A stretch of 64,000 nucleotides of DNA from an uncultured Verrucomicrobiae bacterium (GCA_963769025.1 CAVYKI010000009.1:1088001-1152000), one strand, 5' to 3'; shown: positions 1,115 through 21,692, counted from the first letter of the stretch. Translations and numbers: made by a program. Notes: a model not told the origin generated them from the sequence alone.

Positions 1115-1132
1115 GCGCGCGGTGCGTGAAGG

Positions 1133-2939: not shown

Positions 2940-3085
2940 GTATCCCGCGCGAAACCTTCCCGCAAGCCGCGCGAATCCTCTGCGCAAGCCGCGCGGATTT
3001 CCGAAGAATTCTGTTGTCACAAATTACCCCACCCGACTACATGCCCGGCACATGCAACCTGCACAGAAGGGGGTGACACTATAAA

Positions 3086-3193
3086 ATGCGTATCCTCGCC
3101 ATTCTCGCCCTCGCGGCCATGAGCTTCGGTTTCGTGTCCTGCGCGAAGCACAATCCGCCGCCGCCAGCGCCGGAGCACCACTACCACAAGTAA
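3086..3193 (+). CDS. Small lipoprotein, 35 aa
   Basis: MRILAILALAAMSFGFVSCAKHNPPPPAPEHHYHK*: signal peptide, lipobox Cys, Pro/His tail; followed by a short hairpin and T-rich run. Confidence 0.7.
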   Translation: MRILAILALAAMSFGFVSCAKHNPPPPAPEHHYHK

Positions 3194-3249
3194 GCTTCCC
3201 TCTCGGGGAGATTATTTTCGAGGCCAGATTGAATCCGTTCAGTCTGGCC

Positions 3250-3855: not shown

Positions 3856-3860
3856 AAAGT

Positions 3861-3959
3861 AACGTTGAACGCTCAATGCCCGACGTCCAACGCCCAAAGT
3901 TGAAACCCGCACCCGGGGTCTCGCCACCGCGGACGCTCAACGCCGGACGTCGGACGTTT
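3861..3959. repeat. Degenerate heptamer tandem repeats (RACGYYS), groups of 6 and 4 units
   Basis: aacgttg aacgctc aatgccc gacgtcc aacgccc aaagttg at 3861-3902; gacgctc aacgccg gacgtcg gacgttt at 3932-3959. Confidence 0.65.
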
Positions 3960-4709: not shown

Positions 4710-4770
4710 GCGCCCACCATGCCCGCATTCGCTCCCCGCGGCAAGGCGGCTGCAGCGGTCTGCGGTCCCG

Positions 4771-5553: not shown

Positions 5554-6863
5554 GCGTCAACGATTCCGAAGAGCATCTCCGCCTCGCTGCACACCTCGCC
5601 ATTGACGATGCAGCGACCCTTCGCCTTTGCGATTCCCCTGCCCTTCTTGGAAGTGAGCTCCACCTCGATGAAAAGCGTGTCGCCGGGGACGACGGGCTTG
5701 CGGAATTTCACCGAGTCCGCGCTCATGAAGTAGCCGATCTTGCCCGCGTTGCCCGGCACCCGCAGGAGCAGGATGCTGCCGACCTGCGCCATCGCCTCGA
5801 GTTGCAGGACGCCCGGCATGATCGGGTGGCCGGGAAAGTGGCCCTGGAAAAAAGGCTCGTTGATCGTGACGTTCTTCACGCCCGTGCATCGCGTGTCGCC
5901 GTCGAGCGAGACGATGCGGTCCACCATGAGGAACGGGAAGCGGTGGGGCAGCAGGTTCATCACGTCCTTCACGTCGAGCACGTCGCCGCCCTTCGGCGTC
6001 GTGGCCGGCGGGATGAGCGCGTTCATGCGCGCCTGCTGCTTTGCAATCGCGCGGCAGAGATCCGCATTCGGTCCGTGGCCGGGCTTTATCGCGATGACGT
6101 GGCCCTTGATCGCGCGGCCGAAGAGCGCGAGGTCGCCGATGATGTCGAGAATCTTGTGCCGCACGAACTCGTCCTTGAAGCGCAGCGGCTCCTTGCCGAG
6201 CACCTGCTCGCCGCGAATGACGACCGCGTTCTCCAGGCTGCCGCCCTTGATGAGCCCCTTGTCCATGAGCGGCTTCACGTCCTCGTAAAAGACGAACGTG
6301 CGCGCGGGCGCGATTTCCTTTTCGTAAATCGCGGGCGTGATCTCCGTGGAGAAATACTGCGTGAAACGCCCGTCTGGGCCGACATTGGTGCACGAGACGC
6401 GGAACTTCGAATCCGGGACGATGGTCATCAGCGAGCCGCTTCTCGTCTCGATGTGGATCGGCTCGGTGACGTCATAGATCGGACGCGCCACCTGCTGATC
6501 CACGATGCCCGCCTTGTTGATCAGCTCCACGTATTGCTTCGCCGAGCCGTCGCCGATGGGCGGCTCGCTCGCGTCCATCTCGATGAGGCAGTTGTCCACG
6601 CCCATGCCCGTCAGCGCGCTCAGGACGTGCTCGACGGTCTGCACCTTCGCACTGCCGTCCGCGATGGTCGTGGCGCGCTCGACCGTCTTCACGTGGTCGA
6701 TGCGTGCGTCGATTATCGGCTCATCTTGCAAATCCGCGCGCTTGAATTTCATGCCATGTCCGGCGGGGGCCGGGTGCAGCGTGAGGACGACCTCGTTGCC
6801 CGTGTGAAGGGAGGCGCCGGATACGGAGACGCTCTGGCCGAGCGTGCATTGATTGAGACTCAT
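5550..6863 (-). CDS. lpxC-fabZ: Bifunctional LpxC deacetylase / FabZ dehydratase
   Basis: TVEHVLSAL and HKILD (LpxC) fused to LPHRFPFLMVD and GHFPGHPIMPGV (FabZ). Confidence 0.96.
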   Translation of the reverse strand: MSLNQCTLGQSVSVSGASLHTGNEVVLTLHPAPAGHGMKFKRADLQDEPIIDARIDHVKTVERATTIADGSAKVQTVEHVLSALTGMGVDNCLIEMDASEPPIGDGSAKQYVELINKAGIVDQQVARPIYDVTEPIHIETRSGSLMTIVPDSKFRVSCTNVGPDGRFTQYFSTEITPAIYEKEIAPARTFVFYEDVKPLMDKGLIKGGSLENAVVIRGEQVLGKEPLRFKDEFVRHKILDIIGDLALFGRAIKGHVIAIKPGHGPNADLCRAIAKQQARMNALIPPATTPKGGDVLDVKDVMNLLPHRFPFLMVDRIVSLDGDTRCTGVKNVTINEPFFQGHFPGHPIMPGVLQLEAMAQVGSILLLRVPGNAGKIGYFMSADSVKFRKPVVPGDTLFIEVELTSKKGRGIAKAKGRCIVNGEVCSEAEMLFGIVDA

Positions 6864-6933
6864 CGTTTGGATTCGCGGAAAAGTCCGCCGCTTATGGGGA
6901 ATCCGTCCCCATGCGGCAAGCGCGATGATTCTG

Positions 6934-7007
6934 CTAGGGCGCTCTCGCCGGGAGCGCCCGCTTCGAGCCACAACGAGTCAGGGCGGCCTCGGCGATGCCG
7001 CCCTACC
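6934..7007. repeat. Inverted pair of GTAG-type REP-like palindromes
   Basis: CTAGGGCGCTCTCGCCGGGAGCGCCC on + and GGTAGGGCGGCATCGCCGAGGCCGCCC on -; each forms a hairpin. Confidence 0.6.
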
Positions 7008-8580
7008 TGCGGATCAGCGAGCGCCCTGTCATCTCCGCGGGCTTCGCCACGCCGAGCAGGTCCAGCAGCGTCGGTGCGACGTCGGCGAGGATGCCGCTGT
7101 CGAGGTTCACGCCCGCGTGGTCTTCGCCGACATAGATGAATTGGACGAGGTTCGTCGTGTGCGCGGTGTTCGGCGAACCGTCGGGGTTGCGCATCAGCTC
7201 GCAATTCCCGTGGTCGGCGGTGAGCAGCAGCTTGCCGCCCAATTCCAGCGTGCGCTCGACGAGCAGCCTGCACGCGACATCGATCGTCTCGACCGCGTGG
7301 ATGCCGGCCCCGACCACGCCCGTGTGCCCGACCATGTCAGGATTCGCAAAGTTCACGATGACGAGGTCGAACTCCTCCAGCCGCCGCCGCACCTCGAACG
7401 CCAAATCCGGCGCGCTCATCTGCGGCATGAGGTCGTAAGTCGGCAGCGCCGCCTCCTTGCCGTCCTTACTGTAGTTCTTCGGGCTCAGCGTGAGATAGCG
7501 CGCCTCGCCGGGAAATGGCGTGTCGCTCCCGCCGTTGAAGAAAAATGTGACGTGCGGGAACTTCTCCGTCTCCGCCGCGCGAAGCTGCTTCAGCCCCGCC
7601 GCGGCGACGACTTCGCCGAGAATGTGGCTCATGCTCGCGGGGCCGAAGACCGACTTCACACCGAGCGCCGCATACGTCTCCTTGTATTCCGTCAGCGTGT
7701 AGTAGCCGGCGAGCTTCGGCTTGCCCTGGGTCGCGAAGCCGCTGAACGCCGGGTCCATGAATGCCTCGGTGAGCTGCCGCGCGCGGTCGGCGCGGAAGTT
7801 GAACCACAGGACCACGTCGCCATCGCGCATCCGCTGCTCATTCGCGTGGGAGAAAATGATCGGCTGCATGAACTCGTCGCCGCGCGGGTCCGCCGGATAC
7901 GCGGCCCGCACCGCTGTGGACGGCTTCTCGGCGCTCACCGGCCCGCGCCCGAGCACGATGGCGTCCCACGCGAGCTTGTTGCGCTCCCAGCGCTTGTCCC
8001 GGTCCATGGCAAAATAACGCCCGATGACCGTGGCGATCTTCGCCGCAGTCGGCGCGATCCCCTTCTCCACCATCGCCAGGAAATCCGCACCGCTCGTCGG
8101 CGACGTGTCGCGCCCGTCGGTGATGGCGTGGATGAGGATGTCCTTCACCCCCGCCGCCGTCGCCGCCTTGCACAGCGCGATGAGATGCTCCTGATGCGAA
8201 TGCACCCCGCCATCGCTCACGAGTCCGAGTAGGTGCAATCGCGATCCTTTCGCCTTTGCGAACGCCTCCGCGAGCACCGCATTCGTGGAAAATTCGCCGT
8301 CGAGGATCGCCTTGTTGATGCGCGTGAGGTCCTGATACACGACGCGCCCCGCGCCGAGGTTCAGGTGGCCGACTTCACTGTTCCCCATCTGCCCGTCCGG
8401 CAGCCCCACATCCATCCCGCTCGCCGAGAGGCGCGACTGCGGATACGTGGCGTAAAGGTGATCGTGGAACGGCGTCTTCGCGAGCAACGTGGCATCGCCA
8501 TTTTCGACCGCCTTCGCGCGGCCCCCGGGATTCACACCCCAGCCGTCACGGATGATAAGGACAACAGGCTTCTTCGACAT
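7003..8580 (-). CDS. gpmI: 2,3-bisphosphoglycerate-independent phosphoglycerate mutase
   Basis: GQMGNSEVGH, DGRD, AETEK, NPDMVGHTG, TADHGN. Confidence 0.97.
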   Translation of the reverse strand: MSKKPVVLIIRDGWGVNPGGRAKAVENGDATLLAKTPFHDHLYATYPQSRLSASGMDVGLPDGQMGNSEVGHLNLGAGRVVYQDLTRINKAILDGEFSTNAVLAEAFAKAKGSRLHLLGLVSDGGVHSHQEHLIALCKAATAAGVKDILIHAITDGRDTSPTSGADFLAMVEKGIAPTAAKIATVIGRYFAMDRDKRWERNKLAWDAIVLGRGPVSAEKPSTAVRAAYPADPRGDEFMQPIIFSHANEQRMRDGDVVLWFNFRADRARQLTEAFMDPAFSGFATQGKPKLAGYYTLTEYKETYAALGVKSVFGPASMSHILGEVVAAAGLKQLRAAETEKFPHVTFFFNGGSDTPFPGEARYLTLSPKNYSKDGKEAALPTYDLMPQMSAPDLAFEVRRRLEEFDLVIVNFANPDMVGHTGVVGAGIHAVETIDVACRLLVERTLELGGKLLLTADHGNCELMRNPDGSPNTAHTTNLVQFIYVGEDHAGVNLDSGILADVAPTLLDLLGVAKPAEMTGRSLIRR

Positions 8581-8687
8581 AAGCCCGCGAGAAAAGCAGA
8601 CACGCGCTGCTGTGCAAGCGCGGCGGCGGCTGGCTGCGTGGCAAGGGGGCTCGGTTCATCCCGATGCTGCACATTCCATGGTCGGCG

Positions 8688-9483
8688 TCAGCCATTGCCG
8701 TCCCCAGGCCCGGAAGTCAGCCAGCCCAGCCAGAGGACAATCGCTGAGCCGAAGAAGTAGGACGCGACGGCAGTCCAGCGGACATCCGCCGCGAAGACGA
8801 CCGTATTGCTCATCCCCACGATCGATATCGTCAGGCCGAAAGTCGCCACGAGAAGGATGGCCAGCCGGGCAAGCTGAGGATGAAGTCCAGGTACCTGTGG
8901 ATGATTCCACCTCCATCCGGGGCCGACCGATGCCGAGGAGCGCGCGCCCAGATCGGTCCGCGCCAGTAATACCGGACGACGGCGGCACGCAGGCGCTTAA
9001 ACAGCGGGCGGGGCCGAGACGCTGGCACGGGCGCGAGTGACCGGGCCGCAACCTCTGGCTGCGGCGCGGAAGGCGCGGCAGAACCCTGGCGGAGGTAGGG
9101 CAGCAGCCGTGCCTTTTCATCGGGCCATCTGAACACCTGGAGCTGGCGGAGGGTGCAGGGCAGGTCCGCGGCAGCGATGCCGCCGCAGACGACTGTAAAA
9201 AGGTTCCCGCGGTTCCGGCCCGAAAGCTTCTCGATGGCGAAGGAGTCCCATTCGTAGCGGACCCACTGCTTTTCCGCGTGGGCGCGGCTGGAGGTGACGA
9301 CCATGAGATGCAGGCAGCCTTCAAGGGCACCGTCGATGGTGTGCTTGTACTCCGCCAGCCCGACCTGGTCGATGCTCTGCTCGCTAAACAAGCAGACGCA
9401 GTGAGATGGCGGAAGACTTCCGTGGCGAAGGAATAATCCTCGCTCGCCGCACTGATGAAGACTTCGTAGCCGGTCTCGTCCAT
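8688..9483 (-). pseudogene. TIR-domain protein with two C-terminal TM helices, split by two frameshifts (~9390, ~8868)
   Basis: YEVFISAASEDYSFATEVFRHL in one frame; FSEQSI...IDGALEGCLHLMVVTSS...QWVRYEW in the next; LAILLVATFGLTISIVG...AVASYFFGSAIVLWLGWL in the third. Confidence 0.7.
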
Positions 9484-9534
9484 GCGACCGTTTCGCTAGC
9501 ACGCAGGGCGGCGCGTGACCAGCATCGAACGGCG

Positions 9535-12063
9535 CTACGGGCGGACGATGGCGGTGACGCTCGGCTGTGTGAAGTAGCGCCGGGCGGCTTCGCGGACCTG
9601 TTCGAGCGTCACGGACTCGACCCGCTCGCGAAGGCCTTCGTAGTGGCGGTGGCCGAGGCCGTAGAGTTCGTCGAGGGCGCAGGCAAAGGCGAGGGCGTCG
9701 TTGCTCTGGTTGCGGATGGCTTGCGCTCCGAGGAGTTTCGCCTTCGCGCGTTCCAGTTCGGCAGGCGCAAGGCCATCCTCCGCGAGCTTGCGGATTTCGT
9801 CGGCCAGCGCTGCGCGGACTTCCGTGACCTTCGCGGGGTCCGTGCCGACGTAGAAACTGAACGCGCCGCGGGCGAGGCCGATGAGGTTGCTGCTGCCGAC
9901 AAAGTACGCGAGGCCCATGTCTTCGCGGATGCGGTTGAACATGCGGGAGCCGAGATCGCTGCACGCCTCGTCGATCAATTCCAGCGCCACGGCATCGGCG
10001 CTGAAGATGTCCACCCCGGGGAAACCGATCATGAGGACGGCCTGCTCCTTTGCCTTGATGAGCGTGGCATCGATGCTCGCCGCTGGGAACTGCGATTGCG
10101 GGATTTCCTTCAGTCCTTGGACGCCCTTCGGAATCGCGGCGAGCACGCTCTCGGCGAGGTCGCGGACTTCACGCGAATTCACCGCGCCGAAGACGGATAG
10201 CACGCCGTTGCTGGCGACGACATGCCGGTCGCGGAACGCGGCGAGGTCGGCAGGTTTCAGCGAAGCAAGCGTCGCGGGCGTGCCAAGCACCGGCATCGAG
10301 AATGGATGCCCCGCAAACAGCCGCTCACGGAGCAGATTGCGGGCGATGCTGGTGACCTCTTCGCCGTCGGCCTTGATCGCCGCCAACTGCGCGCTGCGCT
10401 CACGCTCCATCGCGGCCGCCGGAAAACTGGCGTTGAGGAGGATGTCCGAGACGAGTTCGAGCCCGTGCTTCAGATCGGGCCGCAGCACTCGCGCGGAGAC
10501 GCTGAGGCTGTTGTTCCCGCTGTCCGTGCCGATGGCGCCGCCGGTGGCCTCGATGGTTTCCGCGATGTCGTCGGCGGATTTCGTCAGCGTGCCCTTGATG
10601 AGCGTCCTGGCGACCATGCGCGAGATCCCATTGTTCGCCGGAGTCTCGGCGAGGAGGCCGCACCGGAAGGTCGCCACCATGGAGACGAGCGGCAGGCGGT
10701 CGTCCTCGCGCACAAGCACGCAGAGTCCGTTCGAAAGCTGGAACTTTTCCACCGCCCCTGCGCTCCGAGTCACGACGCTGGCGGCGCGCTTGCGCAACGT
10801 GCCCTTCGGCATGAGCGAGGAAATGGTGAGATTTTCCTCCGTGAAATACTGGCGCGACACGCGGCGGAGATCCTCGGGCGTCACGCGCTGGACTGCTGCG
10901 AGGTAGGTCTGGTTGAAATTCAGATCCCGCGCGTGGAGCCAGTTCGAGCCGAGGCTGCTGGCCTTGCCGCGCATCGAGGTGAGCGAGTGGAATTGGTGGC
11001 TGAGGAATTGCCGGCGCGCCTTCTCGAGTTCCGCGGGCGTGACTCCGCTTTCCTTCAACTCGGAAATCATCCGCTGCACTTCGCGGACGGTCTCGTCCGC
11101 CTTGTCCGGGTCGAGCACCGCGTCCGCGCCGAAGAGCCCCGCGGTGGACGAAGTGTAGCACCATGCATCGATGCCATGGACGATTCCCAGGCCTTCGCGG
11201 AGCCGCCGGTAAAACCGGGCGCTGCGACCGGCTCCGAGCACGCTCGAGAGCAGGTCCAGCACGGGAATGTCGGCATGCGTGATCTCCGGCACGTGCCAGG
11301 CAAGGCCGAGTCGCGCCAGTTCAGTGTCGAATTCCGTGTGCCGCTCGCGCCGGCCCATCTGGCCCGCCTCGCGAGGCACGAGCACGTCCGGCAACGGCCG
11401 CCGCGGTTGCGGGCCAAACGACTTGGCCAACTGCGCACGAACCGCGTCCGCCTTCACGTCGCCAACCACGACGAAAAACACGTTGTTCGGCGCGTAGCGC
11501 GTCCGGTAGTAGGCCTGCATGTCGGACCGGGTCAGACGGTCAAAAAGGTCCCGGTGGCCGATGACGGGATGGCGGAACGGATGCTCGGCAAATGCCGTCG
11601 CGAAGAGCTGCTTTCCCGCAACGGTGTCCGGGTCGTCGTTCCCCATCGCGAATTCCCGCCGGATGACCTCCTGCTCCTTGGAAAACTCCGCTTCCGGCAG
11701 GGTGGAATTGAGAACCGCATCCGCCAAAAGGTCAATCGCGACACTCACGTTTTGTGCGGGAATATCAATCCAATACACTGTCTGTTCAAAAGATGTGTAT
11801 GCGTTGATGTATCCGCCTCGTTCCTGGATTCCACGGGCGAAATCCTGCGAACCCCGTGTGCCCGTGCCCTTGAAAAGCATGTGCTCGAGAAAGTGGGAAA
11901 GCCCCGCTCCAAGCCATTGCCCCTCGTGGATGCTCCCCGTCTTCACCCACGCCTGCACGCTCGCGACAGGTGCAGAATCGTCCTCCAGGACGACGAGCTC
12001 AAGCCCGTTGGGAAAATTCAGCACCTGAGCCTCGCTCGGAGGCAAAAGCAGGTCATCATTCAT
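9535..12063 (-). CDS. M16 family zinc peptidase (two-module, PqqL-like)
   Basis: HFLEH inverted zinc motif; second degenerate M16 module. Confidence 0.93.
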   Translation of the reverse strand: MNDDLLLPPSEAQVLNFPNGLELVVLEDDSAPVASVQAWVKTGSIHEGQWLGAGLSHFLEHMLFKGTGTRGSQDFARGIQERGGYINAYTSFEQTVYWIDIPAQNVSVAIDLLADAVLNSTLPEAEFSKEQEVIRREFAMGNDDPDTVAGKQLFATAFAEHPFRHPVIGHRDLFDRLTRSDMQAYYRTRYAPNNVFFVVVGDVKADAVRAQLAKSFGPQPRRPLPDVLVPREAGQMGRRERHTEFDTELARLGLAWHVPEITHADIPVLDLLSSVLGAGRSARFYRRLREGLGIVHGIDAWCYTSSTAGLFGADAVLDPDKADETVREVQRMISELKESGVTPAELEKARRQFLSHQFHSLTSMRGKASSLGSNWLHARDLNFNQTYLAAVQRVTPEDLRRVSRQYFTEENLTISSLMPKGTLRKRAASVVTRSAGAVEKFQLSNGLCVLVREDDRLPLVSMVATFRCGLLAETPANNGISRMVARTLIKGTLTKSADDIAETIEATGGAIGTDSGNNSLSVSARVLRPDLKHGLELVSDILLNASFPAAAMERERSAQLAAIKADGEEVTSIARNLLRERLFAGHPFSMPVLGTPATLASLKPADLAAFRDRHVVASNGVLSVFGAVNSREVRDLAESVLAAIPKGVQGLKEIPQSQFPAASIDATLIKAKEQAVLMIGFPGVDIFSADAVALELIDEACSDLGSRMFNRIREDMGLAYFVGSSNLIGLARGAFSFYVGTDPAKVTEVRAALADEIRKLAEDGLAPAELERAKAKLLGAQAIRNQSNDALAFACALDELYGLGHRHYEGLRERVESVTLEQVREAARRYFTQPSVTAIVRP

Positions 12064-12144
12064 CCCCGCACCTCCATCGCGATGCGATCGCTCAACGCCC
12101 AATCCGGAAGCCGGCCAACATCCCGCCGATACCATCTCGCCACG

Positions 12145-12576
12145 CTAGTTCCTGACTTCCGCGCTGGGTTTCACCTTGCGCCCGATGCGCCCCACATTCC
12201 CCGGCGTGTACGGCTCCACAAATGCCTCATGGAACGAATAGACGTCCTTGAAATCCTCGCGCGAGTCGCCGTCGGTCTTCCCGAAAACGCCGAGTTCGAT
12301 CAGATTCCAGACCATTTCACCAAAATCGTCCGTCTTTTGAATGCCCCAATATTCAAAAACGGTCGGCACCATCGGGCCAAACGCCTTGATCGCCAACTGG
12401 CGGAGCCCCTCGGAAAGCTGCTGCCCAGTGACGTGGCCGCTCTCGCCCAGTTGCCGTTTCCTCAGCTTCACCGCGTGGTCGAGTCCTTCGCGGAGAAAGA
12501 AATAGGCATCAGCGTGATATCGGGGATCTGCATCGGTGAGGACCGCAACCGCTTCGGCGAAATCAAGTTTTTGCAT
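12145..12576 (-). CDS. Verrucomicrobia/Planctomycetes-conserved hypothetical protein
   Basis: DPRY..DAY.FLREGL...HVTGQQL...WGI..TDDFGEMVWNLIE...KTDGDSREDF. Confidence 0.8.
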   Translation of the reverse strand: MQKLDFAEAVAVLTDADPRYHADAYFFLREGLDHAVKLRKRQLGESGHVTGQQLSEGLRQLAIKAFGPMVPTVFEYWGIQKTDDFGEMVWNLIELGVFGKTDGDSREDFKDVYSFHEAFVEPYTPGNVGRIGRKVKPSAEVRN

Positions 12577-12757
12577 GGGGTTTTCCAGAGGACCGAGGTT
12601 ATGCCACGCGTTCGGCAAGGTCAATGCCAGCGCAGCAGAATGGCGGCGAATTTCACCCGAAACGAGTCATTGACGTGCAGACGCGTGGCCCCTAGCTTCA
12701 CGCCCCTTTTTCAAAAGAAACCACTCAACGAAACACTCAACCAGATAGGAGGAAAAA

Positions 12758-12998: not shown

Positions 12999-13033
12999 AA
13001 AGCCCGCCGGGTCCCAGGACCCGCGGGCTTTTT
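12999..13033 (+). terminator. Intrinsic terminator between convergent rpsU and the J-like/FGE gene
   Basis: aaagcccgccgggtcc-ca-ggacccgcgggcttttt hairpin with T tail. Confidence 0.8.
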
Positions 13034-13051: not shown

Positions 13052-14761
13052 TCAGGCACACTCGCAGACGATCCGGAACCCGACGTCATTCGCGAGATAC
13101 CCGGGCTCGTTAAACGCCCTCGCCGTCGCCCGCAAGCTGGACATCCGCGATTTCCACGAGCCTCCGCGGTAAATGCGCTGCTGGCTTTTTTGCGTGGCGC
13201 GAGGATTCAGGACTTCCTTGCCCTTGTAAGCCTCGTAGGTGTCGAGGCACCACTCGAAGACATTGCCCGAGAGATCCTCGATGCCGAATGGGCTCGCGCC
13301 GCGCGGAAAACTCCCTGCCGGCGCCGTCTCGGCAAAGCCATCGTCGATCGCCGGATCGCGCCACGGAAAATTGGTCCGTGCATCCGCGAAGTTTGCGAAG
13401 TGCCCGACCGAACTCCAGCAGCCCCACGGAAAAATCCGTCCATCCTCTCCACGGGCGCTGAACTCCCACTCCGCCTCGGTCGGCAGACGGTACGTCTTCT
13501 TCTCGCGTTTGCTGAGCCATTGGCAGAACGCCTCCGCCTCGTTCCAACTCACGTAAAGCACGGGATGTTTCTCGTTCGCCCACGGCGCACGTTTCGCCGC
13601 ATGCCTGGGGTCGAACATTTCGTACTGCGCATTCGTGACCGGCAGCCGCGCCATGTAAAAGGATGTCAGGGTCACGGGCGTCAGCGGATTCTCGTTCGGC
13701 TGCGCATTGGCGTCCTTGCTGCCCATCACGAAACGGCCGGTCGGCACGAGAAACATCTCGGATCCCACGCCGTTGGTAAAATTCGGGTATCTCCGCCGTT
13801 CCAGTGCACGGGCGGTCGGGGAGAGGTTGATCTCAATCCCCGCTTCCTTCTTTGCCACCGGCGGCGCCGGAGCCGCCGCCGCTGCACGGACGGGGACCGG
13901 AGCCGGAGGTTGGGGAGAAGGTGCGGGCCTTGCACCGGCAGCCACCAGGACTGGTTTTGCCTGGCGGTTTGGCACCGGCACCGAAGCGTGCGCGACGGGA
14001 GCCATCGGCTGCGACTCCATCTGTTCCAGATAATCGTCAATGAGGTCCTCCGCCTCGCCACCCGTGAGCCCGAGGCTCTCGCCGAGGTTGCACATCGCGT
14101 CACGCTGGTCATCGCTCATCTCCTCCCCATCGAGGCACAGGCGCGACATCTTCAAAATCCTACGGAATTCATCCGCCGGATTACTGCCGCCCGCCGAAGC
14201 ACCAGCCGATGCAGCCGGCGCGACCGACGCGAACCGGACGGGCTCGGGCGGCGGCGGCGCATCTTCGACGCGGACAGCTCCCGTCCGTTCCAATTCCGAA
14301 CGGATGGCCTCCTCGATATCAGCCGGCCCGAGGCCGAGCCCCTCTCCGGCCACCTGAAGCTTTGCCTCGCTCTCCTTGCTCAGCCGTTTGTCCGCCAGCG
14401 TGAAGCTCAGCAGTTTCTTAAACTCCTCGAGCGCGCGGCCGATGACCTCGACGTGGATCTCGGAATCGATTCTCTCGCGCTCCTTCGGATCGAGCAGCTT
14501 CGTGCGGGCCTCCGCCAGAAAGTGCGGCGCTTCATCCAGCCCCTGGCGCAGCAATTGCGCCATCGGGTTGCTCGGCTGGTTTTTAAGCGGAAGCTTTTTC
14601 TGCCACCAGACGAGAAGCTGGCGGCAGTGATCCTCGATCATGTCTGGCGTCGCATTCGAGGAAAAGTCGAGACACAGGCGCGCGTAAAGATTGGCGGAAT
14701 TGTAGGTCTTCCAGCCTGTCCATTTGATCGGGTTGTCGGGAAGCGGATTGGGAAGTGCCAC
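13052..14761 (-). CDS. J-like domain + 2 TerB-like repeats + Pro/Ala linker + FGE-sulfatase (C-type lectin fold) domain protein
   Basis: NLYARLCL..ATPDMIE...LAEARTKLLDPKERERID (J-like, no HPD); RLPTEAEWE, DLSGNVFEW, RGGSW, GFRIV (FGE family). Confidence 0.85.
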   Translation of the reverse strand: MALPNPLPDNPIKWTGWKTYNSANLYARLCLDFSSNATPDMIEDHCRQLLVWWQKKLPLKNQPSNPMAQLLRQGLDEAPHFLAEARTKLLDPKERERIDSEIHVEVIGRALEEFKKLLSFTLADKRLSKESEAKLQVAGEGLGLGPADIEEAIRSELERTGAVRVEDAPPPPEPVRFASVAPAASAGASAGGSNPADEFRRILKMSRLCLDGEEMSDDQRDAMCNLGESLGLTGGEAEDLIDDYLEQMESQPMAPVAHASVPVPNRQAKPVLVAAGARPAPSPQPPAPVPVRAAAAAPAPPVAKKEAGIEINLSPTARALERRRYPNFTNGVGSEMFLVPTGRFVMGSKDANAQPNENPLTPVTLTSFYMARLPVTNAQYEMFDPRHAAKRAPWANEKHPVLYVSWNEAEAFCQWLSKREKKTYRLPTEAEWEFSARGEDGRIFPWGCWSSVGHFANFADARTNFPWRDPAIDDGFAETAPAGSFPRGASPFGIEDLSGNVFEWCLDTYEAYKGKEVLNPRATQKSQQRIYRGGSWKSRMSSLRATARAFNEPGYLANDVGFRIVCECA

Positions 14762-14795
14762 GGCTTTGGGCTCAGCGGGGCGGCATGGGCCGGCG

Positions 14796-16370
14796 TTACG
14801 AAATGCTCAGTTGGGCAAGATCGGCTGTCGCCAGCGCGATTTCATTTTCCGCAAGTCCGGTATTGCGGGCGATGGACACGCGGCTGGTGCGTCCGTATGC
14901 CTCGACCACGACTTCGAGCACCTGATTCTCGTTGTAATGATACGTCAGTTCGACAGGCGATCCCTTCGGCAGGAATGGCGGAAGCTCGATGTCGCAGATG
15001 CCCAGCGGCGTGCATTCCCCGGGGACGCTGCTTTCCCCCTCCACCACGCGGACGATGGCGTTCTTCATGTTCGCCTTCGCTGTTCCGAATGAATTCTTCA
15101 TGTCCGCCGGCACCGGCGTCATTTTGGCGATCATCGGGAACACGTATTCCTCGACCTTGCTGTCGTCCCACAGCACTACGCCGAGCGTGTGCGTGGTGAT
15201 GTTCGTCACCTTGATGAGCGAGCCGTCGGACGCGGAGAACTGATCCCTCACCTCCTGCGAAATATTGTGCAGCCCCGTCTCATCCTCCTCGTGGAGCATC
15301 GAGAGCATGCCCTGGATGGCGGCCCCCATCGCGACCGCCTCGTCCGGGCTCACATCATCCGCCGTCGGGCGGCCGGACATGTCGTTGATCATCTGGCGCA
15401 CGGAAGGAACGCGGGTCATGCCGCCGGTCATCAGCACGCGATCAATCTGTTCCCAGTTCATGTTCGCCTCCTGCATCACGATTTCGCAGATGGCCTTGCT
15501 CTTTTCGAGCAGGTGCCGGCACCGCTCCTCAAAGTCCTCGCGGGTGAGTTCGAGCTTCACACTGCGTCCATTGTAGTTGTGTACCAAGGTGGTCCGCGGA
15601 CGTGTGGAGAGCTGGATTTTCGCCGTGAGCGCGCGGTTGTAGAGATCCTGGTAGCTCTGCAGATCGAGCAGCGGATTCTCCCCGTGCTGCTTGTCGAATT
15701 CCTCCGCGACCCAGTTCACGATCACGTCGTCCCAGTCCTTGCCACCGAGGCGATGGTCGCCGTTGCTCGCCACCATCCGGATGTGATGGCCGTCGATCCG
15801 CATGATCGTGACGTCGAACGTTCCGCCGCCAAGGTCGAACACGAAGACCGTCTGATCCTGATCCAGCTTGTCCAAACCGTAGGCGAGCGCCGCCGAGGTG
15901 GGCTCGTTGATGATCTGCAGGACGTTCAGTCCGGCGAGCTGCCCGGCGACGAGCGTCGCGGTCCGCTCCGCGTCATTGAAATACGCGGGAACCGTGATGA
16001 CGGCGTCCGTGACCGTTTCGCCGAGATATTTCTCCGCGTCATTCTTCAGCTTCCGGAGGATGATGGCCGACAGTTCCTCCGCAGAATACACCTTCCCGCC
16101 AAACGTGCGGCTGAACTGCGCCTTGCTCTTGCCCATTTCGCGCTTCACGAAATCGACAATCTTGTCGGGCTCGGCGACGGCGTTCTGCTTGGCGATGGTT
16201 CCCACCACGGCATTCGTGCCGTCGAACAGGATCACCGATGGCGTGATGCGCTCGTTCTCGGTGTTTGGGATGATCTGCGGCTTTCCGTAAGCGTCGATGT
16301 GGGCGACGGCGCAGAATGTGGTGCCGAGGTCGATTCCTACGGCTTTGCGGTTTAGTGGTTTTTCAGACAT
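14796..16370 (-). CDS. Hsp70-family protein, atypical (524 aa, lid truncated)
   Basis: GIDLGTT, TVPAYFND, INEPTSAALAYG, FDLGGGTFD, GGMTRVP, PDEAVAMGAA. Confidence 0.95.
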   Translation of the reverse strand: MSEKPLNRKAVGIDLGTTFCAVAHIDAYGKPQIIPNTENERITPSVILFDGTNAVVGTIAKQNAVAEPDKIVDFVKREMGKSKAQFSRTFGGKVYSAEELSAIILRKLKNDAEKYLGETVTDAVITVPAYFNDAERTATLVAGQLAGLNVLQIINEPTSAALAYGLDKLDQDQTVFVFDLGGGTFDVTIMRIDGHHIRMVASNGDHRLGGKDWDDVIVNWVAEEFDKQHGENPLLDLQSYQDLYNRALTAKIQLSTRPRTTLVHNYNGRSVKLELTREDFEERCRHLLEKSKAICEIVMQEANMNWEQIDRVLMTGGMTRVPSVRQMINDMSGRPTADDVSPDEAVAMGAAIQGMLSMLHEEDETGLHNISQEVRDQFSASDGSLIKVTNITTHTLGVVLWDDSKVEEYVFPMIAKMTPVPADMKNSFGTAKANMKNAIVRVVEGESSVPGECTPLGICDIELPPFLPKGSPVELTYHYNENQVLEVVVEAYGRTSRVSIARNTGLAENEIALATADLAQLSIS

Positions 16371-16433
16371 GGCTCTTTGGGCTTAAGAACACTTTTTGGA
16401 TTGCAGAGGTAAATTTGCGGAAGGTTGAAAAGA

Positions 16434-17257
16434 TCATGCCGTGGCCGGGGCTTTTCCGAGGGCGGAGAGGAATCCTTCCTTCCACTTCTTGATCACGACC
16501 TCCTCGGCGCGGACCACGCGATCCTTCCAGAGGAAACCGCGTTTGACGACTTTCACGACCACATGATCCTGATCCGGATCCTCGGTGTATTCCACGGTCA
16601 CCGCCCGCTGGGACTGCTTGTCCAGTTTTCCCGTGCCGGACGGAACGATCGTCACGCCCAAGCCGCTCCAGCATTTCGAGCACCGAATCGCGGTTGTGTT
16701 CGAGCTGGTGGACCGGAGCCGCGACGTTCTCGAAAAAGATCAGCGCACTTCCCGCCATGGTGCCGCGCTGCTCCTGGCTCGAGAGCGCCAAGCGCGAGTT
16801 GCCGATGGATGTCCGAAATGTCGTCGTAGAGCGAAATCAGATCGCGAATCACCGGGCGCAACACCGCTTCGAGGAGAAACGCGTCCTTGTAGGTCTTCAG
16901 CTCCGCGTGGAGCGCCTCAAACATCGCCTTGCTCACCGCATTGCGTTGCTCGAGCGCCACCTTCGTCTCCGCGAGAATCTTCGGCACGCCGGTCTGGTGC
17001 ATCATCACCTTCTCCACGCGGTCCAGCATTTCCACCTGCTCGAACTGCGCGCGGGCCACCGCCTCGATCCCCTGCAGGACGGGACGCAATGATTGCTGAA
17101 AACTCAACGGATGGGATCCTCCATCGCCCGGACTGTTTGCCGATGGAACTCCGTCGGGCTTGACGGAACACATGACCACGGGCGTCGCAATGGGATGCGC
17201 TTCGGGGTTCGCGCAGTCGGCGAGTTCGCTGGTGTTTGCGGGCTGAGGTTCGACCAT
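16434..17257 (-). CDS. GrpE-like nucleotide exchange factor, interrupted by two +1 frameshifts (16790-16791, 16660-16661)
   Basis: Long helix (LRPVIRDLISLYDD), LEMLERLGV, and GrpE beta domain VVKVVKRGFLWKDRVVRAEEV. Removing one A at each CCAAGC restores a 273-aa ORF. Confidence 0.8.
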
Positions 17258-17271
17258 GACGACCTGCGAAA

Positions 17272-17287
17272 AGCGAATTCCGCGCCA
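17272..17287 (-). promoter_or_regulatory. Putative sigma54 -24/-12 promoter of the grpE-hsp70-J operon
   Basis: TGGCGCGGAATTCGCT (GG-N10-GC) in the short intergenic gap. Confidence 0.45.
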
Positions 17288-17314: not shown

Positions 17315-18847
17315 TCAAATCGCGGCTCTGCAGTAATCCAAAATCGCCTCAACGAGCCCCGGAATGTCGTAGCGAGACGCCTCGACATCCACGTTCAATC
17401 CCAGCCCGCGCATGGTGGCCGAGGTGATCGGGCCGATGGAGGCCGCCTTCAATCCCGGCGGCAGAGGCAGCTTCAGCGCCATGAAATTTTCCGCCGTCGA
17501 GGAACTGGTGAAAGTGACCATGTCCGCGCCCTCCTCGCGAAAGCGCGCGATGGCACCAGATCGGTCCTCCGTCTCCGGCACCGTGCGGTACACGGCGGCC
17601 ACATCCACGATCGCGCCAAGCTTCGTCAATTCCTCCGGCAACACGTCCCGCGCTTCCTGCGCCCGCGCGAGCAAAATGCGGAGGTTCTCGACCGAGCCTT
17701 CCTTCTTGAATGCCTTCACAACGGCCTCTGCGACATACTCCTCAGGCTGCAAATCCACGCTCAGCCGGTATTCGCGCACCTTCGCCGCGGTCGCCGGTCC
17801 GATGGCCGCGATCCGCACACCGCCGATCTCGCGGGCGTCCTTGTAGATCTTGTAGAACGCGTCAAAGAACGCATCGACTCCATTCGGACTCGTGAAGACC
17901 AGCCAGTCGTAGCCGTGCGCGTCGCGCACCATTTCCGCCATCGCGAGTCTGTCCGTCGGCGGCTCGATGCGGATCGTCGGGATTTCCATCACGTCCGCGC
18001 CGAGCTCCCGGAGGCGCGATGAAAGCGCGCCCGCCTGCTTGCGCGTGCGCGTCACCACGATCCGTTTTCCAAAAAGCGGCCGCGTCTCGAACCAGTTCAG
18101 CGACTCCCGCAGCTTCACCACCTCGCCGATGATCGCCACCGCCGGCGCCTTGAACCCCGCCGCCTCCACCTTCCCGGCGATGTCATCCAGCTTGCCCACG
18201 AGCGTCTGCTGACGCCCGGTCGTCCCCCAGCGGATGAGCGCGACGGGCAAATCCGCACGCGCACCGTGCTTGATCAACTCCCCGGCGATCACCCCAATGC
18301 GCTCGACACCCATGAGCATCACTTTGGTTCCCGGATTTTTCGCAAGTTGATCGTAGTCGAGCTTGCTCTCCGGCTTCGTCGGATCCTCGTGCCCGGTGAA
18401 AATGGTGAGCTGCGAAGTATGCTCGCGGTGCGTCACCGGGATGCCCGCGTAGGCACCCGCCGCGACCGTGGAGGAAATGCCGGGGATCACCTCGAAGTGC
18501 AGTCCCGCGCGCACCAGTTCCAGCGCCTCCTCGCCGCCCCGCCCGAAGACAAACGGATCGCCACCCTTGAGCCGCACGACGCGTTTCCCAGCCTTCGTCT
18601 TCTCGACGAGCAGCGCATTCGTCTCCTCCTGCTTGAGCGCATGCTGCGCCGCGCGCTTGCCCGCGTAGATGATCTCCGCCCCTTCCGGCGCCCACTTCAA
18701 GATCTCCGGATTGCAGAGCGCGTCGTACACCACCACGTCCGCCGTCTCCAGGACCTCGCGCAGCCGCAGCGTCACGAGCCCGAGATCCCCCGGCCCGGCT
18801 CCGGCCAGATAGCAGATTCCCGAATGTTTCACTTTAGTCGCAGGCAT
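17315..18847 (-). CDS. cobA-hemD: Uroporphyrinogen-III C-methyltransferase / synthase fusion
   Basis: GAGPGD, RLKGGDPFVFGRGGEE; HemD motifs VFTSPNGV and FTSSS. Confidence 0.95.
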   Translation of the reverse strand: MPATKVKHSGICYLAGAGPGDLGLVTLRLREVLETADVVVYDALCNPEILKWAPEGAEIIYAGKRAAQHALKQEETNALLVEKTKAGKRVVRLKGGDPFVFGRGGEEALELVRAGLHFEVIPGISSTVAAGAYAGIPVTHREHTSQLTIFTGHEDPTKPESKLDYDQLAKNPGTKVMLMGVERIGVIAGELIKHGARADLPVALIRWGTTGRQQTLVGKLDDIAGKVEAAGFKAPAVAIIGEVVKLRESLNWFETRPLFGKRIVVTRTRKQAGALSSRLRELGADVMEIPTIRIEPPTDRLAMAEMVRDAHGYDWLVFTSPNGVDAFFDAFYKIYKDAREIGGVRIAAIGPATAAKVREYRLSVDLQPEEYVAEAVVKAFKKEGSVENLRILLARAQEARDVLPEELTKLGAIVDVAAVYRTVPETEDRSGAIARFREEGADMVTFTSSSTAENFMALKLPLPPGLKAASIGPITSATMRGLGLNVDVEASRYDIPGLVEAILDYCRAAI

Positions 18848-18901
18848 GCGCGGAAACTGTCTGACGCACCGCCCGCCGGGCAAGTGCAACCTCGCATCCC
18901 G

Positions 18902-19843
18902 TCACGACGCCGCACGGGAGAGCTGGCGGAAAAGCTCCGCGGCCAGCGCCTCCGGCTGCGTCGGATCTCCGGTTACCGTGCCCTCTGCCGGAGGCCGGCC
19001 GGGTTCGGAAAAAAGGATGCCCCGCATGACGAGCTCGCCATCGCGCAGTTCCGTACGAACCCCCACCGGCACCGAGCAGTCGCCCGCGAGCAACCGTTGC
19101 AACGCCCGCTCGGCGCGAATCGCCACCATCGTCGGAGGATGGTTGATCCGAGCAAGGACGTCCCGGACATCCATACGGTCCGCGCGAATCTGAAGCGCAA
19201 TCGCCCCCTGCCCGATCGCCGGAATGATCCGCCCCGCGAGCGACGACGCGCGCCACTCGCCGCCGTCCCACTTCAAAATCCCCCGCTCCAAATCCAGCGT
19301 GTATCCGAGACGCCGCAATCCCGCCTCTGCCAGGACAATCGCGGCGATCTCCGCGTTCTCACCCAGTTTCCGCAGCCGGCTCGGCACATTCCCGCGCCAT
19401 TCCCCGATGACGAGATCCGGCCGCAGCCATCCGAGTTGCCGTGCGCGACGAACACTGCTCGTGCCCACGTGCGCGCCTTGCGACAGCGCATCGAGGCCGC
19501 CTGCGGTCTTGCTCACGAGAATGTCCGCAGTCGGTGCGCGCTCCAGCACCGCGACGATCTCCAGGCCGTCCGGATTGTGGCCGGGCAGATCCTTCAGGCT
19601 GTGAATCGCGACGTCGATGCGCCCGTCGAGCAGCGCATCCTCAAGCTCACGCGTAAAGAGCCCCTTCCCGCCCGCTTCGCCCGCCTTCAGCAAATTCAGA
19701 TCGAGCTTCTTGTCGCCGCGCGTGATGAAAACTTCCCGCTCCGTCCGGAGCTCGGGCAACTCCCGCGCGAGCGCAGCCTCGGTAAGGTCCACCTGCGCGA
19801 GCGCAAGCGCCGATCCACGTGTACCGATCCGCAGGACCTTCAC
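18902..19843 (-). CDS. hemC: Hydroxymethylbilane synthase
   Basis: RIGTRGSALALAQ, GKGLFTRELE, HSLKDLP, GTSSVRR, GDCSVPVG; GTG start overlaps the hemA stop. Confidence 0.96.
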   Translation of the reverse strand: MKVLRIGTRGSALALAQVDLTEAALARELPELRTEREVFITRGDKKLDLNLLKAGEAGGKGLFTRELEDALLDGRIDVAIHSLKDLPGHNPDGLEIVAVLERAPTADILVSKTAGGLDALSQGAHVGTSSVRRARQLGWLRPDLVIGEWRGNVPSRLRKLGENAEIAAIVLAEAGLRRLGYTLDLERGILKWDGGEWRASSLAGRIIPAIGQGAIALQIRADRMDVRDVLARINHPPTMVAIRAERALQRLLAGDCSVPVGVRTELRDGELVMRGILFSEPGRPPAEGTVTGDPTQPEALAAELFRQLSRAAS

Positions 19844-20907
19844 TTCGCCCCCTCCGGCTGCATTCCGGCGGTTCCCGTTCCGCCAAAGCCATGGTGCGGC
19901 ACCGAAAGCCATTTCGAAAACTCGGCAACGTGCCGCTCGATCATCTCCTCACAGCGGACGAGTTCCTTCCGCCGCACCTGCATGCTCTGCTCCGCGATCC
20001 CCTGCAGCGCATCGATGTCGTAAAGGTACACGCCCTCGACGTCGTTCACCGTCGCCTCGAAATCGCGCGGCACCGCGAGGTCGATGCAGAACAGCGGCCG
20101 ATCCTGGCGGCGCGTCATGAGGGGTGAAATTTTCGCGTTTGTGACCACCGCGTGCGGCGCGCCGGTCGAGCCGATCAGGATGTCCATCGCATCAAATTCC
20201 TTTTCCCAATCATCGAAATGGATTGCCCGGCCGCCCAGCATCGCCGCGAGCGACGCAGCCCGCTCGTAGGTCCGGTTCGAGACAAAAATCGCCTTTGCCC
20301 CGCGCGATTGCAGCGCCTTCGCAGTCATCTCCGCCGTCTCTCCGGCGCCGAGCACCATCACGTTGCACGCGTCGAGCTTCCCGAAGATTTTCTCCGCGAG
20401 TTCCACCGCCGCGCTGCCGACGCTCACCGCGCCGCGCGTGATGCTCGTCTTCGTCCGCACTTCCTTCGCCACATTAAACGCGCGCTGGAAAAGCTTGTTC
20501 AGCGTGCGCGAAGTCGATCCCGCGGCCTGCGCTGACTGGTAGGCCTTCTTCACCTGTCCGAGGATTTCCGTCTCGCCGAGCACCATGCTCTCGAGCCCGC
20601 TCACCACTCGGAAGAGATGGCGGATTCCCTCCTCGCCTTTCAGTTCCACAAACGTGGGCGCCTGCGGCGGGTGCCCGCTCTTCGTCGCGATGAAATCCGA
20701 CACCGTCCTCAATCCCTCCGTCCCATCCTCGGCGGCGGCGTAATATTCCACCCGGTTGCACGTGGAGATGATGACCGCCTCGCGAAGCCCATGCGCCTGC
20801 GCGAGCAGCGAGCTGAACTCGCCAAGATGCGCGTCCCCGACCGCGAAACGCTCGCGCATTTCCACCGGCGCGGTTTTGTGGCTGAGACCGAGGCAGAGGA
20901 CTTCCAT
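19840..20907 (-). CDS. hemA: Glutamyl-tRNA reductase
   Basis: STCNRVE, GLESMVLGETEILGQVK, DLAVPRD; start MEVLCLG. Confidence 0.96.
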   Translation of the reverse strand: MEVLCLGLSHKTAPVEMRERFAVGDAHLGEFSSLLAQAHGLREAVIISTCNRVEYYAAAEDGTEGLRTVSDFIATKSGHPPQAPTFVELKGEEGIRHLFRVVSGLESMVLGETEILGQVKKAYQSAQAAGSTSRTLNKLFQRAFNVAKEVRTKTSITRGAVSVGSAAVELAEKIFGKLDACNVMVLGAGETAEMTAKALQSRGAKAIFVSNRTYERAASLAAMLGGRAIHFDDWEKEFDAMDILIGSTGAPHAVVTNAKISPLMTRRQDRPLFCIDLAVPRDFEATVNDVEGVYLYDIDALQGIAEQSMQVRRKELVRCEEMIERHVAEFSKWLSVPHHGFGGTGTAGMQPEGAK

Positions 20908-21692
20908 CAGTTGCCGAGGTGGAGGAAGCTGAGTGCTCCCAGTGTGGTAAGCGCCAATGCGAAGGCCGCGACCGCGAGCCACGCGATCCGGCGCGAGCTG
21001 AAGCGGTGCGTGCGGCGCATGACCAAAAGCACGCCGTACGGCAGCCAGACGCACACCGCGAGGATGATGGTGGAGGCCGCCGCGTGCCCGGCAAAAAAGC
21101 CCGCAACGATGCCAACTGTCAGCAGCGCGAAGCCCGCGAGCATCAGCCGCTGCACCGCTTCGGCGAGATTCGCGATGGGCGGGAGATCGTGGAAAAAGGA
21201 ATTCAGCGTGTGCCGCTTCAGGTGCCGCTCCTGCACGAGGAACATCACGCCCGCAACGCACGCCAGCGCGAAGGCACCGTACGCCACGAGCGAAATTGCC
21301 GCGTGCAGCTCTGGCCAGAAGCCTGACGACACCTTGCGCACCGCCGGCTGCGAGGCGGCAGGCAGCAATTGCGCGACGACCTGGATCAGGAAGACCAGTG
21401 GAGCGGTGAACGTCCCGAGCAACGACAGCCGGTAGGTGCTCCCGACGACGAAATACAGCAGCACCACCGACCAGCTCAGGAAGACGAGCACCTCGAAAAG
21501 ATTCGTGAGCGGGCATCGTCCGACATCCTGGCTCCGCAGATGCAGGAAGCCGCTCTGCAAAATGAAACCCGTCAGCATCACCACGAAATTCCAGCGCGAG
21601 GGATGCCGCACTTTCGCGCCGAGCGCATACATCGCGTAGGCGAACCCGGCGAGGAAGCAGAGCGTGGATGAGACGAGGAACGCGCGTTCCAT
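20907..21692 (-). CDS. Cytochrome c assembly protein (CcsA-like)
   Basis: Polytopic membrane protein directly upstream of hemA; P..NLFE, H-containing helix, QER.LK. Confidence 0.85.
   Translation of the reverse strand: MERAFLVSSTLCFLAGFAYAMYALGAKVRHPSRWNFVVMLTGFILQSGFLHLRSQDVGRCPLTNLFEVLVFLSWSVVLLYFVVGSTYRLSLLGTFTAPLVFLIQVVAQLLPAASQPAVRKVSSGFWPELHAAISLVAYGAFALACVAGVMFLVQERHLKRHTLNSFFHDLPPIANLAEAVQRLMLAGFALLTVGIVAGFFAGHAAASTIILAVCVWLPYGVLLVMRRTHRFSSRRIAWLAVAAFALALTTLGALSFLHLGN

Follow-up and report, generated by a model that had tools for sequence, protein, structure and literature searches.

Two kinds of Hsp70 system that resemble the one described here are already in print: specialized Hsp70 paralogues with private J-protein partners, and conflict sets that combine HSP70, GrpE, and DnaJ proteins (Mayer 2021, PMC8215388; Kaur et al. 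2020, eLife, PMC7159879). When a J domain docks on DnaK, D35 of the J domain contacts R167 and Q378 of DnaK, H33 contacts L391, and R22, K26, and R27 contact E206, D211, and E217 (Mayer 2021, PMC8215388). The HPD motif is found in 99% of J domains according to a recent review, and HPD mutants fail in every tested system (PMC13580251 and PMC8215388, respectively). The same review, which dates from 2026, describes truncated derivatives of DnaK as mostly unexplored territory (PMC13580251). Here, we analyzed a three-gene locus in a 64,000-nucleotide (nt) stretch of DNA, the window, from an uncultured Verrucomicrobiae bacterium (GCA_963769025.1 CAVYKI010000009.1:1088001-1152000). The triad encodes a GrpE-like protein, an Hsp70 that ends where the lid should begin, and a protein in which a J-like domain without HPD is joined to a domain of the FGE-sulfatase family.

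We favor, with a probability of roughly 0.6, the view that the triad is a self-contained, dedicated Hsp70 system that is vertically inherited, and that the J-like/FGE protein is its specific co-chaperone or adaptor. In the literature covered (including passages of PMC10410713, PMC11019930, and PMC13580251), the triad and its non-HPD, "WW-type" J-like module were undescribed; the supplements of PMC10410713, which could list such architectures, and Barriot et al. 2020 lay outside that scope.

Results

The Hsp70 of the triad stops at the start of the lid

The middle gene of the triad (14796 to 16370, minus strand) encoded a 524-residue protein that matched the Pfam HSP70 family (PF00012; positions 1 to 509 of 599) with an E value of 3e-119 and 399.4 bits, compared to a cut-off of 20.6 bits. 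The protein was 35%, 31%, and 30% identical to Escherichia coli DnaK, HscC, and HscA, respectively. It scored under the NCBIfam cut-offs for DnaK (408.8 versus 822.55 bits for TIGR02350 and 411.2 versus 648 bits for NF001413), as well as under the cut-off for HscA. Alignments with DnaK, HscA, and HscC indicated a complete nucleotide-binding domain (NBD), a long, nonstandard linker, and a beta-sandwich substrate-binding domain (SBD), with no alpha-helical lid. An earlier note on this DNA had described a 524-residue, lidless Hsp70 with a short subdomain IB and a longer, altered linker, and each of these features was borne out by alignment with E. coli DnaK. Lid helix A was cut off after about 12 residues, subdomain IB was short, and an insertion of about 22 residues preceded a linker that read IKVTN instead of VLLLD.

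As a family set, we used the best 120 matches to the C-terminal part of the protein, 113 of which were full length. Because these members are close relatives (78% identity or more over the part searched), the residue counts that follow are not independent of one another. The missing lid was a family trait, since full-length members were 519 to 559 residues long and mostly 524 to 528. The ATPase motifs were kept, as the earlier note had stated: in E. coli DnaK numbering, which is used for all Hsp70 positions, D8, T11, T12, K70, P143, D148, E171, D194, and D201 were invariant in 113/113 members and T199 was present in 112/113. The positions listed as J-domain contacts by Mayer 2021 (PMC8215388) had changed. 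R167 was replaced by Q in 95/113 members, E206 by R or K in 111/113, and E217 by R in 112/113, and D211 was deleted in all 113. Similarly, D477 was replaced by H, T, or S in 104/113 members and L390 by K or R in 109/113, and both L391V and D393N were present in every member. In addition, the Hsp70 had lost both cleft salt bridges (R56Q, E264N, and E267L), its GrpE-signature loop region was shortened, and its L1,2 loop was 5 residues longer.

The partner protein has a J-like domain in which HPD is replaced

The last gene of the triad (13052 to 14761, minus strand) encoded a 569-residue protein, which was characterized via its Pfam FGE-sulfatase match and via fold and profile matches to J domains. 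Its domain order was as follows: the J-like domain (residues 22 to 102; positions 14456 to 14698), two three-helix units, a Pro/Ala-rich linker, and the FGE-type domain. An AlphaFold2 (AF2) model of residues 1 to 270, based on a 31-row alignment, had a predicted local distance difference test (pLDDT) score of 83.9 overall and scores above 90 for residues 10 to 160. When the J-like domain was compared to known structures with VIA-align, Z was 7.7 for both DNAJB8 (2dmx) and HscB (1fpo), and 14 of the 50 rows had J-protein titles. The best Foldseek rows were also J domains, with probabilities of 0.9 to 1.0 and E values of 0.3 to 3.

A VIA-align Z below 8 can reflect a common arrangement, according to the tool's own note, and we therefore added a profile test. 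An hhalign comparison of 30 J-like sequences with 7 J domains gave a match at 97.5% with an E value of 6e-12 over 71 columns, in agreement with the idea that the N terminus has a J fold without HPD. Pfam DnaJ (PF00226) did not match residues 1 to 110 of the partner, even at an E value of 10. In the hhalign columns, Q54-K55-K56 lay opposite H33-P34-D35, and E43/D44 lay opposite R22/K23. The segment that replaces HPD, WWQKKLPLKNQPSNP (WWQKK...NQPSNP in outline), was invariant in 15/15 loci. Residues W17, Y26, R28, W52, and W53 of the J-like module were unchanged even among homologues with 20 to 27% identity.

The two three-helix units (residues 103 to 165 and 193 to 255; positions 13997 to 14455, minus strand) were delimited from the AF2 secondary structure and had a disordered stretch between them. 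Both copies showed the pattern EF..L...L(S/T)....L...GE.LGL....AE..I, and their structural matches were to generic three-helix folds only, such as ENT/EMSY and FF domains (Z of 6 to 7.6). Kinship of these repeats with TerB was considered and rejected; one weak row was found in the distant fragment P0240 (E value of 0.009), and none was found for the window protein. A search of the ESM Atlas returned nothing beyond "hypothetical protein" clusters.

The FGE-type domain lacks the catalytic cysteine pair

The presence of an FGE/C-type-lectin domain in the partner, also proposed earlier, was confirmed. Residues 335 to 565 (positions 13067 to 13759, minus strand) matched Pfam PF03781 with an E value of 9e-52, and human FGE (1y1e) was matched with an E value of 1e-32. 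In the alignment to human FGE, GGSWKSRMS---SLRAT of the partner was opposite GGSYMCHRSYCYRYRC. The first catalytic cysteine of human FGE was aligned with Ser and the second fell in a 3-residue gap; we take these cysteines to be those numbered C336 and C341. Homologues of the partner likewise had no Cys pair at this site, and the NCBIfam matches of the domain (GldK, PvdO, and EgtB) were all far under their cut-offs. Because both catalytic cysteines are missing, the domain is, as judged from its sequence, a binding module and not an FGE.

The J/Hsp70 interface has changed in both proteins

The earlier note argued that the two sides of the J/Hsp70 interface had been altered together, and this is what the alignments indicated. 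In the partner, WWQKK stood in place of HPD; in the Hsp70, the changes were R167Q, E206R, E217R, the deletion of D211, and the change in the linker. We also compared the charges at Hsp70 position 206 and at J-like position 43, which is the equivalent of R22 in DnaJ. E. coli has E206 and R22. In Verrucomicrobia, position 206 was R in 14/15 and position 43 was E in 15/15. Two distant loci, which are described below, had other combinations: E (read by eye from the translation) and K in the Brocadiaceae locus L047, and E or A and Q in L046. This charge pattern is suggestive of a compensated docking face.

It is possible, but unlikely, that the J-like/FGE protein is instead a regulated client or a passive adaptor, which the Hsp70 and GrpE would hold and release or whose oligomeric state they would set, while the J-like domain docks or dimerizes. 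The absence of HPD would fit this idea, given the failure of HPD mutants noted above, and a lidless SBD would be expected to release its substrates fast. Moreover, a second J-type domain adjoins the J-like module in distant homologues, an arrangement that recalls J-like/J pairs; Pam16, for example, is an HPD-less J-like protein that pairs with Pam18. However, the Verrucomicrobia form of the partner has no second J domain detectable with Pfam, and the altered Hsp70 residues are exactly the J contacts and are conserved, which fits a maintained docking site better than a lost one. The invariance of WWQKKLPLKNQPSNP also argues against a client or passive adaptor.

The GrpE-like gene is split across three frames in this assembly

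The first gene of the triad (16434 to 17257, minus strand) was assigned to a GrpE-like nucleotide exchange factor based on Pfam GrpE, Foldseek searches with an AF2 model, and a profile of orthologues. It had been described as a single open reading frame (ORF) with a start at 17287, and neither point was upheld. The likelier start was the ATG at 17257, and in this assembly the gene spanned three frames (16792 to 17257, about 16661 to 16791, and 16434 to 16660) as a result of two 1-base insertions. The first insertion, an extra base in cttGGcg at 16786 to 16791 (near 16788/16789), changed the frame by +1. The second, in cttGGGcg at 16656 to 16662 (near 16657 to 16661), changed it by +1 again. 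At both sites, all five relatives in the DNA alignment were one base shorter, and the sequence context was GCTTGG. Contigs of a related organism from a public run, which is a relative and not the source organism, were also compared; one was without a base at 16660, and another had 168 letters across both sites versus the 170 letters of the window.

The 75-residue C-terminal piece of the window protein matched Pfam GrpE (PF01025) with 31.1 bits (cut-off of 25.8). In the case of the intact, 273-residue orthologue from the relative G014, the score was 41.2 bits over model positions 30 to 162 of 165. A profile of the 13 GrpE-like orthologues matched GrpE in the PDB with an E value of 1e-4. The AF2 model of the G014 orthologue (pLDDT of 71) had a GrpE-type long helix, a helical bundle, and a C-terminal beta domain. 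Foldseek gave 11 matches to this model at an E value of 0.001 or better, and the best 10 of the 11 were GrpE chains; the E values for 1dkg, 9bls, 4ani, and 3a6m were 3e-7 to 4e-4 with a probability of 1.00. On the basis of this model, the intact orthologue is a true but divergent GrpE.

GrpE-like pieces were present in 13 related loci, and where the coordinates were checked, the gene was in a single frame as one ORF of 241 to 322 residues. We rejected the idea that the two CTT-G sites support programmed +1 frameshifting, since every relative examined encoded one frame. Essential genes of the same assembly (13 contigs; 83% completeness) were split across frames as well: rpoB (four pieces), secA, dnaK, and two class I tRNA synthetases (contigs C3, C9, and C10), with a 1-base indel responsible for the split in the housekeeping dnaK. 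Thus, the assembly seems to carry many indel errors, and any frameshift in it needs to be treated with care. Since these other genes were split too, we read the two insertions in the GrpE-like gene as probable errors of this assembly.

We weighed the idea that the system is decaying in this organism, in which case the GrpE-like gene would be a true pseudogene and the Hsp70 would work without GrpE or not at all. Two insertions with a shared context lay no more than 130 bases apart in one gene, and among the 28 window ORFs with a G014 orthologue, it was the only one with a frame change; the other 27 were in frame. The Hsp70 also lacks the salt bridges that make DnaK GrpE-dependent. Nevertheless, decay is decidedly unlikely, given the similar splits in rpoB, secA, dnaK, and the tRNA synthetases and the intact, single ORF in 13/13 relatives with a GrpE-like match. 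The three pieces of the window gene also argue against decay, as their identity to the G014 orthologue was 62 to 82% (64% for A, 77% for B, and 82% for C) and they were otherwise free of defects.

The triad is accompanied by a separate housekeeping set and is shared by relatives

The triad was not the only chaperone set of its genome, which is consistent with the private Hsp70 machine of the earlier note. We found a separate dnaK on contig C10 and a canonical GrpE gene beside a gene for an HPD-bearing DnaJ. In all, the genome had nine HSP70 matches, including the DnaK on C10 and a 615-residue Hsp70 on C3. As a side observation, near-identical copies of a gene for a 528-residue Hsp70-like ATPase were found at C7:11811-12680 and C3:153617-154159 (L005 and L006), and one of these copies was frame-split.

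In relatives, the Hsp70 and J-like genes were adjacent at 14/14 loci and a GrpE-like gene accompanied them at 13/14; at the fourteenth, the GrpE-like gene was undetected with the query used. The earlier note had named three findings that would refute its reading, namely, an N terminus with no J fold, a lack of co-occurrence of the genes in other genomes, and the absence of any other dnaK/grpE from this genome, and none of the three was obtained. The N-terminal module of the partner was present in 23/24 other genomes of the genus and in 5/16 genomes of other families of the order. In a survey of 301 sampled genomes of the phylum, which relied on a single-protein query and can miss distant forms, the module was found in four genomes, all in the same order. 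The partner had 669 homologues at an E value of 0.001 or better, and homologue names included Chthoniobacteraceae and Verrucomicrobiota. We read this distribution, together with the synteny described next, as that of a dedicated chaperone system that is vertically inherited in Chthoniobacterales.

The locus lies between heme genes and rpsU

The three genes were co-oriented with short gaps, as reported earlier. All were on the minus strand, with 63 nt between the GrpE-like and Hsp70 genes and 34 nt between the Hsp70 and J-like genes. Directly upstream of the operon was a heme cluster on the same strand (17315 to 21692; Pfam), which consisted of genes for a Cytochrom_C_asm protein, hemA, hemC, and a cobA/hemD fusion. 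The cobA/hemD stop was 57 nt from the ATG of the GrpE-like gene. A cobA/hemD gene was directly upstream at 12/14 related loci, including four from other families of the order. On the downstream side were rpsU, a gene for a Minf_1886 family protein, and a gene for an M16 peptidase, and this arrangement was kept among close relatives only.

The terminator said to close the operon was not as described. A GC-rich hairpin was present at 13008 to 13023, where the J-like gene and rpsU converge. The terminator scan scored it on the plus strand with a T5 tail, and on the strand of the operon the same stem was followed by TTT only; we left its strand unassigned and regard it as a possible bidirectional terminator.

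The earlier note had suggested a signaling, conflict, or defense module, and the surroundings of the operon did not point in that direction. The GC content over 12 to 18 kb (0.607 to 0.616) was somewhat lower than in the adjacent bins (0.642 to 0.663) but did not leave the window's span of 0.58 to 0.68. In Pfam and NCBIfam searches of the neighbors, no gene for a GTPase, an effector, or a mobile element was found alongside. In PADLOC-DB 2.0, the Hsp70 and GrpE-like proteins had no match, and the J-like protein had only a sub-threshold one (PDC-S48, E value of 9e-5, with no matched stretch). A module in which the FGE/lectin-type domain senses an invader molecule and the Hsp70 is the switch is very improbable, although FGS/FGE-type domains are nonenzymatic binding modules in conflict systems, HSP70 occurs with GrpE and DnaJ-fused proteins in actinobacterial and firmicute GAP1-N2 GTPase systems (Kaur et al. 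2020, PMC7159879), and at the distant locus L046 both an Hsp70-vWA fusion and a papain-like peptidase lie alongside, because the triad is chromosomal, fixed between heme genes and rpsU, syntenic across families of the order, and lineage-following, with a presence in the genus that is unlike the patchy one of defense genes.

Two observations were made farther downstream. The Minf_1886 family gene just past rpsU (12145 to 12624, minus strand) encoded a 159-residue protein of a Planctomycetes/Verrucomicrobia-specific family with no assigned function (TIGR04138, E value of 9e-42). Downstream of the M16 peptidase gene, two long ORFs overlapped in different frames (8656 to 9483 and 8831 to 9964, minus strand), like one gene in two frames. 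The ORF at 8656 to 9483 opened with a TIR-like stretch, YEVFISAASEDY; a TIR reading of the two ORFs was dropped, as neither had a Pfam match at an E value of 0.001.

Distant J-like modules are found near other lidless Hsp70s

A full-library search with the N-terminal region of the partner yielded 134 representatives, many of which were fragments. In distant members (20 to 27% identity), the J-like module was kept, as was the first helical unit. These were followed by a Pfam-detectable J domain, which was itself without HPD (YINDR or IWENL), and then by further domains: Ig-like and transmembrane segments with RodZ_C or PEGA, two PDZ domains, or TPR repeats. Profile searches located two distant loci in metagenome contigs and one in genome contigs; the alignment that gave the two metagenome loci gave no relative in the genome contigs. 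Neighbors were visible at two of these, L046 and L047; at the third, L045, the J-like gene began at contig base 49 and the upstream region was out of view.

In the L046 metagenome contig, genes for a 564-residue lidless Hsp70 and a 686-residue Hsp70-vWA fusion were located directly upstream of the J-like gene. The genes at 241 to 5988 of this contig were arranged head to tail; the partner was a membrane protein in which RodZ_C is combined with a tandem pair of J-type domains, both without HPD, and a gene for a papain-family peptidase was downstream. In L047, a contig from a metagenome-assembled genome of Candidatus Brocadiaceae, a gene for a 538-residue lidless Hsp70 was about 1.1 kb upstream of the J-like gene, with no clear ORF between them. 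The partner at this locus (6205 to 12568) had the J-like module, a J domain with IWENL for HPD, a transmembrane segment, and two PDZ domains, and a gene for a trypsin-like peptidase with many TPR repeats adjoined on the opposite strand. The family of the L047 partner comprised 14 clusters, one of which was named Candidatus Kuenenia.

The L046 and L047 Hsp70s shared F13, the loss of R167, the deletion of D211, a nonstandard linker, and the same truncation point with the window family. In two trees of 17 and 16 rows, these Hsp70s and the window family formed one clade with 99/98 support, and the clade excluded E. coli DnaK, HscA, and HscC, as well as the DnaK piece and the C3 Hsp70 of the window's own genome. 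The trees contained few references, the single HscC had a long branch, and some other branches were long.

Discussion

A dedicated Hsp70 system could work in the following way. The Hsp70 appears, from its conserved residues, to keep a working ATPase and a peptide-binding beta-sandwich with no lid. The diverged J domain would dock on the face formed by the NBD, the linker, and the beta part of the SBD via a rewired interface, in which WWQKK...NQPSNP would take the place of HPD and an acidic helix II would lie opposite the basic Hsp70 residues 206 and 217. The dead FGE-type domain would bind one client or ligand and present it to the Hsp70, and the divergent GrpE, as its family membership suggests, would reset the cycle. 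We think that the FGE-type domain probably selects one client. The sole hint to the identity of that client is the position of the operon behind hemA-hemC-cobA/hemD, and we regard the heme link as a lead, not as a result.

Several observations weigh against this dedicated system. The charge-swap argument draws on three lineages and on contacts at the level of patches rather than of residue pairs. The J-domain matches by structure are of intermediate strength (Z of 7.7 and no Foldseek row at an E value of 0.001 or better), and Pfam DnaJ is blind to the domain. Because distant homologues have a second HPD-less J domain after the J-like module, the N-terminal module may have another role. The lack of cleft salt bridges and of the GrpE-signature loop goes with GrpE independence in HscA and HscC, which makes it odd beside a private GrpE. 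Finally, of the 28 window ORFs with a G014 orthologue, the GrpE-like gene is the only frame-broken one, with two breaks, which leaves a small probability of a real and recent inactivation.

A broader proposal would extend the dedicated system to bacteria of the Planctomycetes-Verrucomicrobia-Chlamydiae (PVC) group, at least to Chthoniobacterales and the anammox Brocadiaceae. These bacteria would have a lidless Hsp70 subfamily (F13, loss of R167, and a nonhydrophobic linker) that is paired with a charge-swapped, non-HPD J-like module, is orthogonal to DnaK/DnaJ, and uses swappable client domains (dead FGE, PDZ, Ig-like/RodZ_C, or TPR). The FGE form of Chthoniobacterales would then be tied to a heme/siroheme operon and to a client in the tetrapyrrole pathway. 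We consider this proposal, taken as a whole, doubtful and offer it tentatively.

HPD is treated as indispensable for J-domain action, and a helper that docks without this supposedly essential motif would be unusual. If the dedicated system is real, the triad would represent a second way of coupling a J fold to Hsp70, as well as a chaperone pair that is insulated by nature and could serve mechanistic and synthetic studies. The operon offers a clean and widespread case, with a parts list of three genes and a possible link to heme biosynthesis. It looks like an inherited housekeeping feature of soil and freshwater bacteria and not like a defense system.

Of the known systems, the GAP1-N2 GTPase conflict systems also combine an additional Hsp70, a GrpE of its own, and a J-type protein that is fused to a non-chaperone domain, and related systems have FGS/FGE binding modules (Kaur et al. 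2020, PMC7159879). However, those systems are built around GTPases and occur in actinobacteria and firmicutes, and the locus described here is a syntenic chromosomal one with no adjacent GTPase, effector, or FNIII/DnaJ protein.

The resemblance to E. coli HscC, which works with DjlB and DjlC, is closer in the Hsp70 itself. Both are specialized Hsp70 paralogues with a dedicated partner encoded nearby, and the hallmarks of HscC are a deletion in NBD lobe I, no GrpE signature, an L1,2 insertion, and a shortened lid (Mayer 2021, PMC8215388). The window Hsp70 shares the lobe I deletion (DnaK 76 to 101), the lack of the GrpE-signature loop and cleft salt bridges, and the deletion of D211, and its L1,2 insertion is 5 residues compared to 4 to 8 in HscC. 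In contrast, HscC is 550 to 580 residues long with a shortened lid, and the lid of the 524-residue window protein is absent. HscC keeps R167 and the standard linker, and DjlB and DjlC keep J domains of the HPE/HPD type; the window pair does neither. HscC also has no exchange factor, whereas the window operon includes a GrpE-like gene. The two Hsp70s, at 31% identity, are separate in the trees, and the architecture of the window partner is unrelated to that of DjlB and DjlC.

As in HscA-HscB, an Hsp70 paralogue is combined with one specialized J-type partner that would bring one client, and HscB (1fpo) shares first place among the structural matches of the J-like domain. Unlike the window proteins, HscB keeps HPD and HscA keeps the lid and R167; that system has no exchange factor, and its client, IscU, is known. 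An HPD-less J fold inside an Hsp70 machine is also seen in Pam16 (Tim16), but the Pam18 with which Pam16 pairs bears HPD, and the window operon encodes no HPD-bearing J protein.

The DnaK-DnaJ-GrpE system likewise brings these three protein families together in a single operon, and the catalytic residues of its Hsp70 are identical to those of the window protein, which is 35% identical to E. coli DnaK overall. The triad differs from it in all three components. Its Hsp70 is lidless, the J-contact residues have changed, and so has the linker, which is also longer; its GrpE is very divergent from the canonical form, with 41 bits for the intact orthologue. Its partner has neither HPD nor the G/F region, zinc finger, and client-binding beta domains of DnaJ, and carries an FGE-type domain instead.

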